A DNA stretch of 64,000 bases from Candidatus Omnitrophota bacterium (GTDB lineage: Bacteria; Omnitrophota; Gorgyraeia; Tantalellales; Tantalellaceae): NCBI GenBank assembly GCA_043813915.1, contig JBDRKO010000001.1, forward strand, positions 835-64,834, written 5' to 3'. Made by a program: the position numbers and the translations under genes. Below, piece by piece: positions 10,938-58,398 of this stretch; the first letter of the stretch is position 1; every line of letters begins with the position of its first letter. The notes below the pieces were generated by a model. It searched no databases. It saw nothing but the letters and a program-made list of their open reading frames with translations, and was not told the DNA's origin.

Positions 10938-12143
10938 CTAGACCTTCTCTAACTTATGCCCCATCCTTTTCTTCTTAACTTCCAGATATTTTCTGTTCAT
11001 TTTGCCCGGGTTTGTCTCCAGCGGTATCCTTTTCGTTATACGCAGGCCGTAACCGCTAAGCCCTATGATCTTTCGCGGGTTGTTGGTAAGAAGTTTTATC
11101 TTTTTAAGACCCAGGTCCGCCAATATCTGCGCACCTATACCGTAATCCCTGAGATCCGCTTTGAATCCGAGCTGTTCGTTAGCCTCTACCGTATCCAGTC
11201 CGGAATCCTGAAGCTGATACGCTTTTATCTTATTAAGGATGCCTATACCCCGCCCTTCCTGGGCCAGATAGAGGATAACACCTTTACTTTCGCGCGCGAT
11301 CATTTTCATCGCTAGTTCAAGCTGATCCCCGCAATCGCATCTGAGAGAATGAAATATATCTCCCGTCAGGCATTGAGAATGGACCCTGACTATACTCTCT
11401 CCCTTGGTCACGTTTCCCATGACGAGAGCCAGATGCTGATAATCATCAAGTTTGGAGGTGTACGCGTGCAGACGGAACGTCCCGAACGGTGTAGGCAGTT
11501 CCGCTTCGGCCACCTTTTCTATCAATTCCTCTTTTGCCCGTCTGTAACGGATAAGGTCTTCTATCGTACATATCTTGAGACCGTGTTTTTTTGTGAATTT
11601 CATTAAGTTAGGCATCCTCGCCATGGTCCCGTCCTCGTTCATGATCTCGCATATCACTCCAACGCTCGACAATCCCGCAAGTTTCATCAGATCGACACTC
11701 GCTTCGGTATGCCCGGCGCGGACAAGCACTCCGCCTTTTTTTGACCGCAGAGGGAAAATATGTCCCGGTCTGACAAAATCTCTGGCTCTGGAAGCCGGGT
11801 CGGCAAGCATTTTTATCGTTCTGGCCCTGTCATGCGCGGATATACCCGTTGTCACCTTTTCCGCCGCGTCCACGGATACGGCCCAGGCCGTTTTGAACGG
11901 ATCCTGCCGATCGGCCGACTGCGACATAAGGTGCAGGCCCAGTCTATCGGCGATCATGTCGTTCATGGGTACGCATATAAGTCCTCTGCCGTGTTTAGCC
12001 ATAAAATTGACCTTTTGGGGTGTGATCTTTTCGGCGGAAGCAATAAGGTCCCCCTCATTTTCCCTGGAAGGATCATCCACAACCACGACCATACGGCCTG
12101 CTTTAAGGTCTTTTACGGCTTCTTCTATCGTATTGAGTTTCAT
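10938..12143 (-). CDS. ribBA: Bifunctional 3,4-dihydroxy-2-butanone-4-phosphate synthase / GTP cyclohydrolase II
   Basis: 401 aa; DHBP synthase N-half (DDPSRENEGDLI) and GCHII C-half (CDCG zinc motif); AAGGAAAGG RBS upstream. Confidence 0.9.
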   Translation of the reverse strand: MKLNTIEEAVKDLKAGRMVVVVDDPSRENEGDLIASAEKITPQKVNFMAKHGRGLICVPMNDMIADRLGLHLMSQSADRQDPFKTAWAVSVDAAEKVTTGISAHDRARTIKMLADPASRARDFVRPGHIFPLRSKKGGVLVRAGHTEASVDLMKLAGLSSVGVICEIMNEDGTMARMPNLMKFTKKHGLKICTIEDLIRYRRAKEELIEKVAEAELPTPFGTFRLHAYTSKLDDYQHLALVMGNVTKGESIVRVHSQCLTGDIFHSLRCDCGDQLELAMKMIARESKGVILYLAQEGRGIGILNKIKAYQLQDSGLDTVEANEQLGFKADLRDYGIGAQILADLGLKKIKLLTNNPRKIIGLSGYGLRITKRIPLETNPGKMNRKYLEVKKKRMGHKLEKV

Positions 12144-12164
12144 GCCTTTCCTTATGTTCCTGTC

Positions 12165-12315
12165 ACTTCACATATACCCCGGCCTGAAGGCCGGGGTTTG
12201 TTTGCCCTGCCTGTCCCGAGCTTGTCGAGGGGAGCGAAGCCGAAGGGTTTACAATTGATCCTGTTTTTCCTTGCTCTGAAACACGGGGCTTAGACGGGGC
12301 GAACGGGTTAAAAAA
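12165..12315. repeat. Family D structured repeat, copy D1 (in ribBA leader, downstream of riboswitch terminator)
   Basis: ataCCCCGGCCtgaaGGCCGGGGtttgtttGCCCTGCCTGTCCCGAGC...GAGGGGAGC...GGGGCGAACGGG; homologous copies 37150-37345 and 44400-44545. Confidence 0.7.
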
Positions 12316-12500
12316 AAGACCCCCGAACACATACTTCAGGGGTCTTTTTTAAAACTTCTCTTCTCCCATCCCGGCTTTACGGTCGGTACCCGATTTTCGC
12401 GGGTTCAGGCCTTTTATTAAAGGCCTCGCGGACTTATCCCCGGTCTGCCCGGAGAAACACCGCCGGCTAAGGACTTTCCCCGTCTAAGCTGGGATCACCT
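12311..12500 (-). promoter_or_regulatory. FMN riboswitch (RFN element) with intrinsic terminator expression platform
   Basis: Minus-strand sequence CUUCGGGGUAAGGUGAUCCCAGC...AGCCGGCGGUG...GUACCGACCGUAAAGCCGGGAUGGGAGAAG matches conserved FMN aptamer blocks (compare B. subtilis ...UUCCCGACCGGCGGUA...AGCCGACAGUGAAAGUCUGGAUGGGAGAAG); followed by AGACCCC...GGGGUCU hairpin plus U8 at 12318-12350. Confidence 0.75.
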
Positions 12501-12699
12501 TACCCCGAAGTTCTTAATGATTTTAACATACATTGACCATAAGTCAATACGTTATCTCTTGCTTGTCTAACCGTCATTGCTCTCTACGATCGCGACCCGA
12601 TTCCGTCATTGCAAGAAGGCGCCGAGAACGTAATGTTCGAGGTGTGCCGAGACCTCCGGGCGAGGCCCGCAGACCGACGCGGCAATCTCTTTCGAATTA

Positions 12700-36457: not shown

Positions 36458-37148
36458 TCTTCCATCCTATTATGACCCGTTCGTATCCGTTCTCATCCTG
36501 AAAGCCGTCCACATTTATAAAACCGTTAATACGAAATTCTTCTTTCATCCTGCCGGCCTGATCGTATCCGACCTCGACGGCCGTAAACCCGCCCGGACGG
36601 AGCATTTTTCCGCTCTCTTGCGCTATGCGCCTGAGGATCTTCATCCCGTCACGTCCTCCGTAAAGCGCCTGTTTGGGTTCCGCCAGCACCCACGCGTCCA
36701 GCTTTCCGTAATCTTTCTCGGAGACATACGGCGGATTTGATATGACCGCGTCAAAAGTGCCCTCTTCTTCTTCCGTGAACGCAGAGAACATATCCGAAAC
36801 GCGCAGTTCTATCCTAACGGCCAGACCGAATTTAGCGACATTGAAGCGCGCGACATCAAGCGCGTCCGGCGAAATATCCGCCGCGACCACTTTTCCGTCC
36901 GCGAACAACGACGCGACCCCTAAAGCGGCGGCACCGCTACCCGTCCCTATATCTGCGACCTTGGGATCGGTGATCTCTTTTTCTTTCAGAAGGCCGCATG
37001 CCGTCGAGACCAAAATTTCCGTTTCAGGACGGGGAATAAGCACTCTGCCGTCGACCATCAGTTCCATTCCCATGAATACAGAACGTTTCTCTTGGTATTG
37101 TATGGGAACTTCCTCGTCGTAATCCTTCATCATCGGTCCGTTAGTCAA
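36450..37148 (-). CDS. prmC: Release factor glutamine N5-methyltransferase (HemK)
   Basis: 232 aa; DIGTGSGAAAL SAM motif and NPPY. Confidence 0.85.
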   Translation of the reverse strand: MTNGPMMKDYDEEVPIQYQEKRSVFMGMELMVDGRVLIPRPETEILVSTACGLLKEKEITDPKVADIGTGSGAAALGVASLFADGKVVAADISPDALDVARFNVAKFGLAVRIELRVSDMFSAFTEEEEGTFDAVISNPPYVSEKDYGKLDAWVLAEPKQALYGGRDGMKILRRIAQESGKMLRPGGFTAVEVGYDQAGRMKEEFRINGFINVDGFQDENGYERVIIGWKIG

Positions 37149-37149
37149 T

Positions 37150-37345
37150 TCACCGATACCCCCGGGGCTTGCTTGCCCTGCCTGCCCCGCCTGTCCCGAG
37201 CAAAGCCGAGGGGAGCTTGTCGAGGGGAGCGAAGCCGAAGGGTTCCAAATTGATCCTGCAATGTCCCGAGCAAAGCGAGGGGAGCCCCGGCTATTTTCCC
37301 TCCGCTAGAGCACGAGCCTCCACCGGGGCGAACGGGTCAAAGAAC
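37150..37345. repeat. Family D structured repeat, copy D2 (between prfA and prmC, with internal duplication of the CCCGAGC...GAGGGGAGC block)
   Basis: caccgatacccccggggcttgcttGCCCTGCCTGCCCCGCCTGTCCCGAGC...GGGGCGAACGGG. Confidence 0.7.
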
Positions 37346-43271: not shown

Positions 43272-43454
43272 TCCCTTAAAGTATGAGTGAATTGAGGCAT
43301 ATTGAGATGAATAGCGCTGTATGCAAATTATTATGGTATCTGGTCGAATTTCAGAAAATCTATGCGGAAATCCTTAGAGGTGAGATCCCTACCCTGATAG
43401 TATTATAAATATAGGGGGCGTTTAGTCAAGCATAAAATTCCCACTCATCCTTGT

Positions 43455-43820
43455 CTACCCCCGGAAGATAACAATAACGAGGATAAGGAACAAGATCCCG
43501 GAAAAAATGTAAAAATCATTGAAATACAGAAAATCCGCGACTGTTCCACTCAGGTCATCTCCGCCGGCGGTCCCAACGGGTCTTGAGAGTTTTTCCTTGC
43601 GGACCCGTTGTATCTCTCCGGCGGTCATTTCCCCCAGTTCTCTTACACGCGACTCTATTTCAGAGCGTATGGCGTCTATCTGCTCTTTTCTGAACCTCAG
43701 AAGTTCCCCGCCCAGCTGGTATGCCGTGATCACTTTTTTGTCCACCAGATCTATCACGCGTTCTTCACGCAGGCCCAGATATTCCGATAGTTCTTTCAAG
43801 GTCAGGAGTTTTTCGGACAT
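43455..43820 (-). CDS. HTH_17 (excisionase-like helix-turn-helix) / coiled-coil / C-terminal TM-anchor protein
   Basis: 121 aa; LLTLKELSEYLGLREERVIDLVDKKVITAYQLGGELLRFRKEQIDA resembles MerR/excisionase-type HTH; hydrophobic C-terminus FSGILFLILVIVIF. Confidence 0.55.
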   Translation of the reverse strand: MSEKLLTLKELSEYLGLREERVIDLVDKKVITAYQLGGELLRFRKEQIDAIRSEIESRVRELGEMTAGEIQRVRKEKLSRPVGTAGGDDLSGTVADFLYFNDFYIFSGILFLILVIVIFRG

Positions 43821-43821
43821 A

Positions 43822-44379
43822 TTACCCTTTGGTCTTTACTTTTCCTTCGGCGATCCACTGGTCCACTTTGGACCTTTCAAATATCCATTCGCCGCCTTCT
43901 TTTGTCCCCGGAATGACCCCGCCGTTCGCCCATTCACCGACCTTGTTAGTCTCGACTTCGAGATATTCGGCCAGCTGATGCGTATTAAGCCAGTCCCCGC
44001 GGCCTGACGCGTTACCTCTCCGTCCGGCCTCGGTCATTTTTATCCGTCCGTTCACAAAGGCGCCCTCGCCTATCGACAGGATAGGGGTCTCGATATCTCC
44101 GTTAAGCACGGCACTGGATTCCAATCGTAATGACTTTCCCGCCTTTATATTACCGAAGACCTGCCCGGACACCAATATCTCTTCTCCCACTATGTTCGCT
44201 TTTATGTCGGCTTTCTCCCCGACCATAAGGATACCTTTGGTATCCAGTGTGCCTTCGAATTTTCCGCTTATACGCAAGTTCACCGGATCGTCAAAACGTA
44301 AAGTCCCCTGCATACTGGCATTCACATCCAGCATTTTATCCGATACTTGCTGCGTGTTATCGATCTTTTTTCTTCTCAT
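43822..44379 (-). CDS. Bactofilin (DUF583 beta-helix) with C-terminal HTH_17-like domain
   Basis: 185 aa; bactofilin repeats (GTLDTKGILMVGEKADIKANIVGEEILVSGQVFGNIKAG...), then LNTHQLAEYLEVETNKVGEWANGGVIPGTKEGGEWIFERSKVDQWI; stop and the next start are 1 nt apart. Confidence 0.6.
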   Translation of the reverse strand: MRRKKIDNTQQVSDKMLDVNASMQGTLRFDDPVNLRISGKFEGTLDTKGILMVGEKADIKANIVGEEILVSGQVFGNIKAGKSLRLESSAVLNGDIETPILSIGEGAFVNGRIKMTEAGRRGNASGRGDWLNTHQLAEYLEVETNKVGEWANGGVIPGTKEGGEWIFERSKVDQWIAEGKVKTKG

Positions 44380-44399
44380 TACTACCTCCTGTCTTTAAA

Positions 44400-44545
44400 A
44401 TAGACCCGTCAATTCACCGATACCCCGGTCTAAAGACCGGGGATTGCTTGCCCTGCCTGCCCCGCCTGTCCCGAGCACCGCGAGGGGAGCCCCGGCTATT
44501 TCCACCACGCTAAAGCACGGGGCTTCGCCGGGGCGAATGGGTCAA
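44400..44545. repeat. Family D structured repeat, copy D3 (between mgtC and bactofilin gene)
   Basis: caccgataCCCCGGTCtaaaGACCGGGGattgcttGCCCTGCCTGCCCCGCCTGTCCCGAGC...GGGGCGAATGGG; hairpin carries compensatory changes relative to D1. Confidence 0.7.
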
Positions 44546-44609
44546 GTGTCTAAGGTGTTATTATAATATAAAAACCGCCGGAGCGGTACTTTTTTTCTGC
44601 CGCGTCCGT

Positions 44610-45281
44610 TCACTCCGCTGTCTGTGCCCACGCTACGCTTTTCACGCCGGAAAGACACTCTATCTCAACGATAACATCCTTCCTGTACGCTTTGGGCAGA
44701 ATAACAAAAAATTCCAGGGTTATGGTCTTTTCTTTTTCGTTCTTGTCGGACCCGGTCCGTTTGGTCCTGCCGCCATAAGCCTCTATTATGTTCTTGATGT
44801 CTTCGGCGGAAGTTTCCCCGTCATCCGAGACCACCGCCACTATCTTTTTGCTCTGCCTTTTAAGCGCCGCCAGTTCTTCCAGCCGGGAAAGGATAAGGAC
44901 AAGAAGAGCCACAGCCGTTGTTATTCCGCCCGCCACATACATACCCGCTCCGGCGGCAAGACCTATGGCAGATACGGTCCATATACTCGCGGCGGTAGTG
45001 AGCCCTTTGATCGATGTTCCATAACGTATTATGGCCCCTGCCCCGAGAAACCCTATCCCCGTTACTACTCCCGACGCTATCCTGGACGGATCCACATTCC
45101 CCATCGTCATATAGCGTTCCGCCATACCTATCGACGTTATCATAAAAAGAGCCGATCCGATGCATACCAGTATGTGGGTCCTGAGGCCCGCGGCACAGCC
45201 GTGGATCTCTCTCTCTGTACCTATCAACACTCCCATAGCGGCAGCTGCCAGGATACGCAATAAAATATCGAGTTCCGTCAT
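44610..45281 (-). CDS. mgtC: MgtC/SapB family membrane protein
   Basis: 223 aa; N-terminal MgtC TM domain plus C-terminal ACT-like domain. Confidence 0.8.
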   Translation of the reverse strand: MTELDILLRILAAAAMGVLIGTEREIHGCAAGLRTHILVCIGSALFMITSIGMAERYMTMGNVDPSRIASGVVTGIGFLGAGAIIRYGTSIKGLTTAASIWTVSAIGLAAGAGMYVAGGITTAVALLVLILSRLEELAALKRQSKKIVAVVSDDGETSAEDIKNIIEAYGGRTKRTGSDKNEKEKTITLEFFVILPKAYRKDVIVEIECLSGVKSVAWAQTAE

Positions 45282-56496: not shown

Positions 56497-58398
56497 TTAC
56501 TTTTTATTAACATACCTTTTTGAGACCGAGATCTCGGTCTTCAGCAGGCGGCAATACAGGTCAAATCCTATCTGGTCTATGAACCCGCTCTGCGCCATCC
56601 CCAAGATATTACCAGCTCCTCTCATCTCAAGATCCCTCATGGCGATCTTGAACCCGGAACCCAGATCCTGATACTTTTTCATCGCCTCAAGACGTTTGCG
56701 GACCTCACCCGTCAGCGCGCCAAAATCCCGTACCACCAGATACGCATAAGCTTTTCGGTCAAATCTCCCTATCCTCCCTCTCAGCTGATACAGGTCCGCC
56801 AGCCCGAATCTGTAGGCGTCATCCACTATCATGGTATTAGCATTGGGAATATCTATCCCCGATTCGATTATAGTGGTACATACCAAGATATCTATTTCCC
56901 CTTTTATGAATTTCATCATGGTCTTTTCAAGGGTCTTTGAGCTCATCTGACCGTGCCCTATCATTATACGGGCTTCTGGGACCATCTTTTTCACCTCTTC
57001 CGCGGTCTTTTCTATGGTCTCCACCCTGTTATGAACGTAGTAGGACTGACCCTTTCTGTCCATTTCCTCCCTCAGAGCTTCCCCGATAAGTCTCTTATCA
57101 TGAGCTATGATCTCTGTCCGTATCGGCATTCTGTCGATCGGAGGGGTCTCTATCATGGAGATGTCCCTCCCTCCCATAAGTGCCATGTAAAGAGTGCGCG
57201 GTATGGGCGTGGCCGTCAGCGTAAGCACATCCACATTCGTCCTTACCTTTTTGATCTTTTCTTTATGCCGGACCCCGAACCGCTGCTCTTCGTCAATGAT
57301 AAGCAGCCCGAGATCGTGAAACTCTATGTCTTCGGAGAGCAGGCGATGCGTTCCTATGACAATGTCCACCGTCCCGTCCTTTATTCCTTCCAGCACGGCT
57401 TTTTGTTCCCCCGGAGAACGGAAACGGTTCATCATCTCTATTTTAACGGGATAATCCCGCAGCCTCTTGGCAAATGTCTCTAAGTGCTGTTCGGCAAGAA
57501 TGGTCGTGGGCACAAGGAACGCTACCTGTTTAGAATCCATAACCGCCTTGAACGCCGCTCTTAGAGCGATCTCTGTCTTCCCGTACCCGACATCCCCGCA
57601 AAGAAGACGATCCATGGGACGCGCGCGCTCCATATCCTTTTTTACCGCGATCAGAGCCTTTATCTGGTCCGGGGTCTCTTTGTAAGGAAACCCTTCCTCC
57701 ACCTCTTTCTGCCAATCGTTATCTTTACTGAAAACGAACCCGGGAGATCTTTCTCTCTCCGCTTGGAGCTCAAGAAGTTCTTTCGCGGCTTTCGCCGCGC
57801 CTTTGGCGGCGTTCTGTTTTGCCGCCTGCCATTTTTTCCCGTTCAAACTGTTGAGTTCGGGGCACTTGCGGTGGAACGAGACATATCTCTGGAGCTTATG
57901 CAGATCGTTCTTATCCACATAAAGCTTGTCCCCACCTTTATACTCTATTACGAAATGGTCTTCCGGTCGGCCGCGGCGGGGTATGCGCTTAAGCCCGAGG
58001 TACCTGCCGATACCATAGTCCACATGAACGACCATATCACCCGGTTCTATGTCCACGAACGAATCTATAGGCTGCTCGCCGATACCTTCAAGGCTCTTCG
58101 TTACCTTACGTCGGCGGAGTGTCTCCGCGGGCAGAATGATCACGCCGTTATGCTCGGTTATGGTCTTAAAAGAACCCAGGTCCACGCTCTTGATCGAACG
58201 CACCACACCGTTTGCGACATCTATCCTTACGGGAAACTCAAATGTCACGGGATACACGGTCAGGATATCGCCGGTAAGAGAATAATCTCCGCAGACGGAT
58301 ACGTTGAGACATCTAGCGTACCCGTACCCATCCAGGAACGTGACCAGCTCATCAACGTCTTTTTTTTCGCCTGTGTATATTTTAAGAGAATCGAACAT
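56497..58398 (-). CDS. mfd: Mfd-like transcription-repair coupling factor, short form (CarD/TRCF RNAP-interacting domain plus SF2 helicase; lacks UvrB-homology N-terminal modules)
   Basis: 633 aa; [11 protein letters not shown] (CarD_TRCF), GDVGYGKTE Walker [16 protein letters not shown] motif VI; Mfd is typically about 1100-1200 aa. Confidence 0.7.

Follow-up and report, generated by a model that had tools for sequence, protein, structure and literature searches.

The p1-p2 locus encodes a bactofilin-helix-turn-helix fusion and a tail-anchored partner

We analyzed a stretch of 64,000 nucleotides (nt) from a Candidatus Omnitrophota bacterium (assembly GCA_043813915.1, contig JBDRKO010000001.1, positions 835 to 64,834 of the forward strand), hereafter called the window. 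Two adjacent genes in it, which we call p1 and p2, encode a bactofilin that carries a helix-turn-helix domain of the winged type (wHTH) at its C terminus and a small membrane protein that begins with a second domain of the same family (Table 1). An earlier note on this DNA had described the pair from its letters alone, and the coordinates and gene structure that it gave proved exact by the open reading frame (ORF) list and the sequence; at the junction, the TAA stop codon of p1 is followed by a single T and then by the ATG of p2. The note had also assigned a bactofilin core and a C-terminal HTH_17 domain to p1, and both were recovered by Pfam above the curated cut-offs, with Bactofilin (PF04519) at residues 17–113 (E 2.2e-22, 79.6 bits versus 27.9) and HTH_17 (PF12728) at residues 130–179 (E 8e-9, 36.1 bits versus 27). 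The TIGR01764 "excise" profile scored slightly under its cut-off for p1 (28.0 versus 28.8 bits). For p2, the N-terminal HTH_17 domain that had been proposed was confirmed by Pfam at residues 5–50 (29.1 bits versus the curated cut-off of 27) and by TIGR01764 from NCBIfam (34.6 versus 28.8 bits).

The p1 domain assignments were further borne out by structure prediction and fold comparison. In an AlphaFold2 model of p1 built from a 33-sequence alignment, the strands over residues 16–115 form a confident beta-helix (predicted local distance difference test score, pLDDT, of 86–97), and the C-terminal domain has a beta-alpha-alpha-beta-beta-alpha winged fold (pLDDT about 85). The top Foldseek matches of the core in the PDB were TtBac (6ria/6rib) and BacA (2n3d), with weak E-values (0.05–0.13), and the core matched BacA 2n3d in sequence with an E-value of 4.8e-5. 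The wHTH domain matched BldC with a root-mean-square deviation of 1.2–1.4 Å across 49 residues, and further matches were RacA (5i44), a small-terminase HTH, Pukovnik Xis, RdfS, and MerR-type regulators; RacA was among the best matches in both structure and sequence (cf. PMC11500499; PMC4914108). Within HTH_17, the p1 domain belongs to an acidic subtype with the signature YLEV...(E/D)W; fragments and apparent gene-call chimeras aside, this subtype was seen only in fusion with bactofilin cores.

The core of p1 resembles the canonical bactofilins, Caulobacter BacA and Thermus TtBac, in its DUF583 right-handed beta-helix, in a hydrophobic residue at the polymerization interface, and in its disordered tails. 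For that interface, which mediates nucleotide-independent end-to-end polymerization, the reference residues are BacA F130 and TtBac F105. We fetched 80 related Omnitrophota loci and computed residue statistics over 79 species. The p1 equivalent of BacA F130 (position 109) is Leu, Ile, Phe, Met, or Val in 79 of the 79 sequences, so that polymerization of p1 is, by homology, likely retained. The protein departs from canonical bactofilins in three respects: it has no MFSK-type membrane-targeting sequence (MTS), a folded wHTH domain replaces the C-terminal tail, and a dedicated tail-anchored partner is encoded beside it. The canonical MTS reads MFSKQAKS and requires F2 and K4/K7 (PMC12448750); such an N-terminal sequence is typical of bactofilins, not obligatory for membership in the family. 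Phe occurs at position 2 in 0 of the 79 p1 sequences, whose N termini read MRKKK, MARR, MGKK, or MLRR across the family.

The partner, p2, is a tail-anchored membrane protein. Its C-terminal hydrophobic segment has a Kyte-Doolittle hydropathy of about 2.5 over 19 residues, and the DFxYFNDFY motif plus tail anchor is present in 78 of 78 complete homologues, with a 19-residue maximum of 1.6–3.2 followed by 0–4 residues in every one; the C-terminal transmembrane (TM) segment of the earlier description is thereby upheld. The aromatic motif (DFxYFNDFYI) is the best-conserved segment of either protein, with D96, F97, F100, D102, F103, and Y104 invariant. A coiled coil had also been suggested for p2, and this suggestion found no support: the middle of the protein is a short, variable linker of about 20–50 residues among homologues that is poorly predicted by AlphaFold2. 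By HMMER, the best solved relatives of the p2 HTH domain were Pukovnik Xis and BldC. The fold search was made with the p1 model, the p2 monomer model being of low overall confidence.

A profile search with the p2 tail returned matches confined to p2 homologues and fragments, and the idea that the DFxYFNDFY-TM tail is a module common to other proteins was rejected on that basis. An apparent family of 77-residue proteins with the p2 tail was likewise dismissed as truncated gene calls; one of its loci (L081) holds a full 100-residue ORF that includes the HTH domain. The public calls of many p2 homologues (P0399–P0438; L081 2935–3237) begin at an internal Met (77–78 residues, MDLIE...), which removes the first half of the HTH domain, and the products are therefore without Pfam annotation.

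Table 1. Features of the p1-p2 locus. Coordinates are window positions; gene coordinates include the stop codon.
Feature	Residues	Coordinates	Strand	Description and basis
p1 gene	185 in total	43822-44379	-	Bactofilin-wHTH fusion; ORF list and Pfam
p1 N-terminal polybasic tail (MRRKK...)	1-14	44338-44379	-	pLDDT <50; 26% mean pairwise identity
p1 bactofilin beta-helix core	15-116	44032-44337	-	PF04519; pLDDT 86-97; BacA/TtBac matches
p1 disordered linker	117-128	43996-44031	-	pLDDT <50 at 119-127; 11% mean pairwise identity, not conserved
p1 C-terminal winged HTH	129-180	43840-43995	-	PF12728; AlphaFold2 fold; BldC/RacA/Xis matches
p2 gene	121 in total	43455-43820	-	Tail-anchored wHTH partner; ORF list, HTH_17, TIGR01764
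p2 N-terminal winged HTH	1-56	43653-43820	-	Acidic recognition helix; basic wing K35, R42, R44, K45
p2 net-basic linker	57-93	43542-43652	-	Variable; 13% mean pairwise identity; net charge +2.1; low pLDDT
p2 juxtamembrane aromatic motif ADFLYFNDFYI	94-105	43506-43541	-	77% mean pairwise identity
p2 C-terminal transmembrane tail anchor	106-121	43458-43505	-	Hydropathy; AlphaFold2 helix 102-120, pLDDT 85-92
p1 Shine-Dalgarno AGGAGG		44385-44390	-	Read from sequence
Terminator-like hairpin 3' of mgtC		44574-44587	-	Consensus scan
Promoter-like site TTGACT-16-TATAAT, 11/12		43402-43429	-	Just downstream of p2; consensus scan

The gene pair is conserved across the phylum

Homologues of p1 form 869 clusters in the protein database, and a relative is encoded in 458 species-representative genomes. 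The best 120 of the 869 clusters carry both Pfam domains at 56–79% identity, and one entry that is 100% identical to p1 is a partial protein comprising the bactofilin core alone. The closest relatives all come from Omnitrophota metagenome-assembled genomes (MAGs), for example that of Candidatus Aadella gelida (77% identity). All 79 testable loci have a p2 homologue directly downstream of p1 on the same strand, the 80th locus being cut by a contig end. Profile hidden Markov model (HMM) searches for the domains and co-occurrence of the two genes had been named beforehand as the checks on which the earlier description could fall; both came out in its favor. The 1-nt spacing between the genes holds in this genome but is no general rule, since just 34 of the 79 species show it; in 53 the gap is at most 10 nt.

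The pair is part of a phylum-wide collinear block that consists of ctpA, a yibQ-like deacetylase gene, tsaD, mgtC, p1, p2, a variable insert, polA, coaE, and rho. In 69 loci, p1 is directly preceded by the mgtC-family gene; the gap has a median of 43 nt, and some of the genes overlap. The insert between p2 and polA differs by clade, encoding tetratricopeptide repeat (TPR)-PDZ and HAMP proteins, LarB/LarC-PDZ, PilB-like ATPases, or ExbB, and it never falls between p1 and p2. Because these genes vary by clade, a conserved third partner downstream of p2 was rejected.

Two further observations were made in the related loci. Several MAGs labeled "uncultured Planctomycetia bacterium" (binchicken MAGs; L003, L005, L007, L009, L012, and others) share the block with 60–67% identical proteins, and, as the block is of the Omnitrophota type, this taxonomic label is probably wrong. 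One Omnitrophota clade also has genes for stand-alone HTH_17 proteins of 65–72 residues (Pfam, 55 bits), which lie some 4.5 kb downstream of the pair and follow LarB/LarC-PDZ and HAMP genes (L046 10723–10920 and similarly in L047, L054, L059, and L064).

The HTH domains diverge from a DNA-binding surface

The HTH domains of p1 and p2 are homologous (hhalign probability 97.9%, 27% identity) and equally conserved, with a mean pairwise identity of 51% each. On the HMM of each domain, generic HTH_17 proteins outscore the other domain of the pair, and we therefore regard the two as independently diverged members of one family. In a library of representatives at 50% identity, the nearest generic relatives of the p1 domain were proteins with three to six tandem HTH_17 repeats (P0241, P0250, P0252, P0254, and P0270; P0241, for example, has six repeats in 417 residues).

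The structure of BldC on DNA provides a reference for the contact residues: K26 and R30 read bases, T27, T29, W31, and K33 contact phosphates, and H46, R47, and R48 dock the wing (PMC5859096). The R30A and H46E substitutions abolish DNA binding by BldC, RacA uses an Arg equivalent to R30, and the head-tail dimer of BldC forms on DNA only (PMC5859096). We mapped these positions onto the 79 species through HMMER alignments. In p1, the R30 equivalent is Glu or Asp in 92% of the sequences, the equivalent of the turn residue R22 is Glu in 99% (Glu or Asp, 99%), the following turn position, 143, carries an acidic residue in 97%, and the R50 and H46 equivalents are Glu or Asp in 94% and 63%, respectively. 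Of the remaining positions, K26 is replaced by Asn, Ser, or Gly, R47 by Trp, and R48 by Ile, Val, Arg, or Lys; K160 (92% basic) and W150 are retained. In p2, an acidic residue replaces K26 in 71% and K33 in 73% of the sequences, the R30 equivalent is variable, H46 is replaced by Leu, Phe, or Tyr and R47 by Leu, and the R48 equivalent is Arg in 100%. The BldC-family contact set (K26, R30, H46, R47, R48) is thus preserved in neither protein, and in generic HTH_17 relatives the contact positions are mostly basic or neutral. The net charge of the domain is −2.0 ± 1.3 for p1 and −1.2 ± 2.6 for p2, compared with +3.5 ± 4.2 for generic short HTH_17 proteins (n = 44) recovered with the p1 HTH query. 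As read from these alignments, the results indicate a conserved, directional divergence from the DNA-binding surface, strong in the case of p1 and partial in that of p2.

A polymer-to-membrane tether is the tentatively favored function

Because most of the DNA-contact residues have been lost from both HTH domains, we read these modules as protein-protein adaptors by which the tail-anchored p2 ties the polymer to the membrane, a reading that we hold tentatively and rate a little short of evenly probable. In this mechanism, p1 would polymerize through its bactofilin beta-helix into a filament in which every subunit bears one wHTH domain on a linker that is short and flexible; p2 would reside in the inner membrane, with the second wHTH domain held at the cytoplasmic face by a linker that is basic and flexible. 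The basic wing of the p2 domain would bind the polymer, at either the acidic p1 HTH domain or the beta-helix core, and this binding would substitute for the missing N-terminal MTS by anchoring p1 to the inner membrane; the close gene spacing would favor stoichiometric co-production of the two proteins. The earlier note had suggested homotypic contact between the two HTH_17 domains; contact of the p2 domain with the beta-helix core, by analogy with the proposal for BacR and BacE/F (PMC13649987), is just as possible. The process served is probably envelope or shape organization, as with other bactofilins. A polymer-to-membrane tether had been suggested earlier, and it stands as the best-supported reading on the basis of the lack of a canonical MTS in p1, the conserved tail anchor of p2, and the loss of the HTH contact residues.

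Two known systems provide precedents. Bacillus subtilis BacR (YhbD, DUF4004) is an HTH protein encoded beside bactofilin genes that binds BacE/F near its HTH, in competition with DNA binding, and the complex is located at the membrane (PMC13649987). The likeness is that of a small HTH protein genetically linked to bactofilins; however, BacR binds DNA, has no TM segment, and belongs to DUF4004, whereas the present pair has HTH_17 domains that look degenerate for DNA binding, one of them fused to the bactofilin and the other TM-anchored. In the second case, RodZ binds MreB through a cytoplasmic domain that contains an HTH (PMC6052060). RodZ resembles the arrangement proposed for p2 as a bitopic membrane protein whose HTH-containing domain binds a polymer with no transcription-factor role, but its HTH is of the XRE type, a large periplasmic domain is present, and the polymer that it binds is the actin-like MreB, so that no homology is implied. 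A co-crystal structure of RodZ with MreB has reportedly been obtained. Together, the BacR and RodZ precedents support the HTH-polymer arrangement proposed here.

Several observations weigh against a tether built on protein-protein contacts. Contacts between wHTH domains off DNA have weak precedent, and the HMM score comparison rejected the possibility that the two domains are a recent duplicate pair, that is, sister domains. AlphaFold2 predicts the p2 HTH domain poorly, the p2 model as a whole being of low confidence (pLDDT 62), and the polybasic N terminus of p1 could by itself give some membrane affinity. Since the whole block from ctpA to rho is strictly syntenic, adjacency by itself says little about a functional link. 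Finally, the basic wing of p2 is retained (K35 in 92%, R42 in 100%, and R44 or Lys in 89%) and about 20% of generic HTH_17 proteins are also acidic at the R30 position, which leaves the loss of DNA binding short of proof.

Alternative functions of the pair

The last two points bear on the best-surviving alternative, a nucleoid tether of the RacA/RocS kind, in which one or both wHTH domains would bind DNA, the filament would serve as a multivalent DNA array, and p2 would be a DNA-membrane anchor that positions or segregates the chromosome in very small cells. We consider this unlikely. The wHTH fold is shared with the chromosome anchor RacA (5i44) and with BldC/Xis, which oligomerize on DNA, and the p2 order of wHTH, linker, and membrane anchor parallels RocS of Streptococcus pneumoniae, which tethers DNA to the membrane through a wHTH domain, a coiled coil, and an amphipathic helix (PMC11500499). 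RocS and the RacA-DivIVA system of B. subtilis are alike in having an N-terminal MerR-type wHTH domain, a spacer, and a C-terminal membrane or pole anchor, but they oligomerize by coiled coils and bind DNA via a conserved recognition-helix Arg. The protein p2 is anchored by a TM segment and not by an amphipathic helix, neither a coiled coil for oligomerization nor the DUF536 of RocS was found in it, and the Arg is not conserved; in p1, the base-reading position is acidic in nearly all sequences, as are three more DNA-facing positions, and the H46 equivalent is acidic in most. Both domains are net negative, in contrast to their nearest generic relatives. The p2 basic wing and basic linker, together with K160 and W150 of p1, fit DNA binding better. 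A bactofilin link to the chromosome also has a precedent in Myxococcus xanthus, in which bactofilins organize ParABS, the BacNOP polymer being linked to ParB/ParA via the adaptor PadC (PMC5703909). That system is similar in that a nearby gene encodes an adaptor joining the bactofilin polymer to proteins that handle DNA, but PadC is ParB-like and soluble, no ParA or ParB genes lie at the p1-p2 locus, and here a DNA-binding-type fold lies within the bactofilin itself. The earlier note had offered a DNA-associated polymer as its own alternative; the loss of contact residues disfavors this for p1, and for p2 it is only weakened because the basic wing is kept.

A variant that we regard as rather improbable is non-canonical DNA binding, dominated by the wing or cooperative, by the wHTH domains arrayed on the filament together with that of p2, which would make the pair a polymer-based device for chromosome-membrane anchoring and segregation peculiar to the ultra-small Omnitrophota. 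The cytoskeletal polymer itself would then be the DNA-binding element, a filament-borne analogue of RacA/RocS, and to this we attach the same low probability.

More doubtful still is that the adjacency reflects frozen synteny, with p1 and p2 working apart and each HTH domain recruiting a separate client, such as an envelope enzyme or the MgtC-family neighbor. The collinearity of the entire block, the close and recurrent placement of mgtC upstream of p1, and the finding that the two HTH domains are not sisters would suit such an arrangement, but the genes between p2 and polA vary freely while p1 and p2 are never parted, their short spacing in most species is typical of co-translated partners, and both HTH domains are conserved to the same degree. 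Least probable, and in our view very unlikely, is a BacR-like switch in which p2 or the fused HTH domain is a transcription factor sequestered on bactofilin and membrane that autoregulates the operon or reports envelope stress: BacR does bind bactofilins, go to the membrane, and re-enter the nucleoid after vancomycin (PMC13649987), but p1 and p2 gave no DUF4004 match at E-values up to 1, the short mgtC-p1 gap with only a Shine-Dalgarno sequence kept leaves no conserved operator-like sequence apparent upstream of p1, a permanent TM tail anchor is ill-suited to a relocating protein, and the recognition helices are acidic.

Readings from mobile elements and defense were rejected. BldC and Xis (HTH_17 PF12728/TIGR01764) share the minimal MerR-like wHTH fold with p1 and p2, but the latter are not stand-alone proteins, have no integrase or mobile element nearby, and carry acidic or hydrophobic residues at key contact positions. 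An excisionase acts as a stand-alone recombination directionality factor beside an integrase in a mobile element, whereas p1 and p2 lie in a housekeeping context that is collinear across the phylum and have no relatives in viral contigs or phage records. The defense protein MADS Mad1 (NF047737) was excluded by its scores (40 and 32.9 bits versus a cut-off of 80) and by the housekeeping neighbors, and the PADLOC mad1 score was just 18 bits.

Novelty and significance of the pair

In public databases these proteins appear as "polymer-forming cytoskeletal protein," "helix-turn-helix domain-containing protein," and "excisionase family DNA binding protein," the last of which is probably misleading for these genes. 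Full-text literature searches returned nothing on bactofilin with excisionase or HTH_17, and the literature on bactofilin with Omnitrophota found in such a search does not treat the p1-p2 pair. What is new is a bactofilin system, conserved across a phylum, in which the fused adaptor domain is unprecedented and the tail-anchored partner is a dedicated one.

Bactofilins are widespread as scaffolds, and their modes of membrane attachment and client recruitment are under active study. The present module, conserved across a mostly uncultured phylum of very small cells, is a different natural solution, with no N-terminal MTS, a folded C-terminal adaptor, and a dedicated tail-anchored receptor. As a "Rosetta-stone" fusion, p1 also backs, from another phylum, the bactofilin-HTH partnership described recently for BacR in Firmicutes. 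Should the HTH domains act as protein adaptors, the pair would be a clean case of a DNA-binding fold co-opted for cytoskeleton-membrane coupling; if they bind DNA, it would be a new kind of polymer-borne chromosome anchor.

Gene layout and expression signals

In the window, an mgtC-family membrane protein gene (44610–45281, − strand) lies directly upstream of p1, and the two are kept apart by a terminator-like hairpin and a GC-rich repeat. The hairpin may mark the upstream boundary of the p1-p2 unit in the source genome; as the gap between mgtC and p1 is so short elsewhere, this boundary may be genome-specific. On the basis of the adjacency and the short gap in other loci, mgtC, p1, and p2 may form a single operon in many Omnitrophota. 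The promoter-like site just downstream of p2 probably drives polA and delimits the p1-p2 unit on its downstream side. Within the p1 leader, the Shine-Dalgarno sequence is the sole element kept among four related loci (L001, L002, L009, and L010). A structured or conserved RNA in this leader was rejected: the GC-rich leader is a genome-specific repeat without counterpart in close relatives, its fold z-score was only −1.9, and Rfam gave no match. The rest of the window contains housekeeping genes, which are co-directional.

Other features of the window

The GC-rich repeat is about 150–170 nt long and was not found in the 80 related loci or in the leaders of the closest relatives, so that it looks like a genome-specific element resembling repetitive extragenic palindromes (REP) or miniature inverted-repeat transposable elements (MITE). 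It occurs in three copies in the window, all on the − strand, which are 76–85% identical and always oriented as the genes are: in the p1 leader (44395–44560), between prfA and a prmC-like gene (37144–37340), and between a flavin mononucleotide (FMN) riboswitch and its downstream gene (12159–12311). The copy in the p1 leader contains a perfect hairpin, CCCCGGTCTTTAGACCGGGG, at 44423–44442, and a version with three mismatches is found at 12177–12196.

An Mfd-like ORF at 56497–58398 (− strand) encodes 633 residues with UvrB_inter, CarD_TRCF_RID, DEAD, and Helicase_C domains, and no C-terminal TRCF domain was detected in it; it is much shorter than canonical Mfd, which has about 1150 residues. The FMN riboswitch (12354–12516, − strand; Rfam RF00050, 70 bits, with a gathering threshold of 66.2) is located upstream of the gene at 10938–12143; after it come a terminator-like hairpin with a U-run and then the third copy of the repeat.

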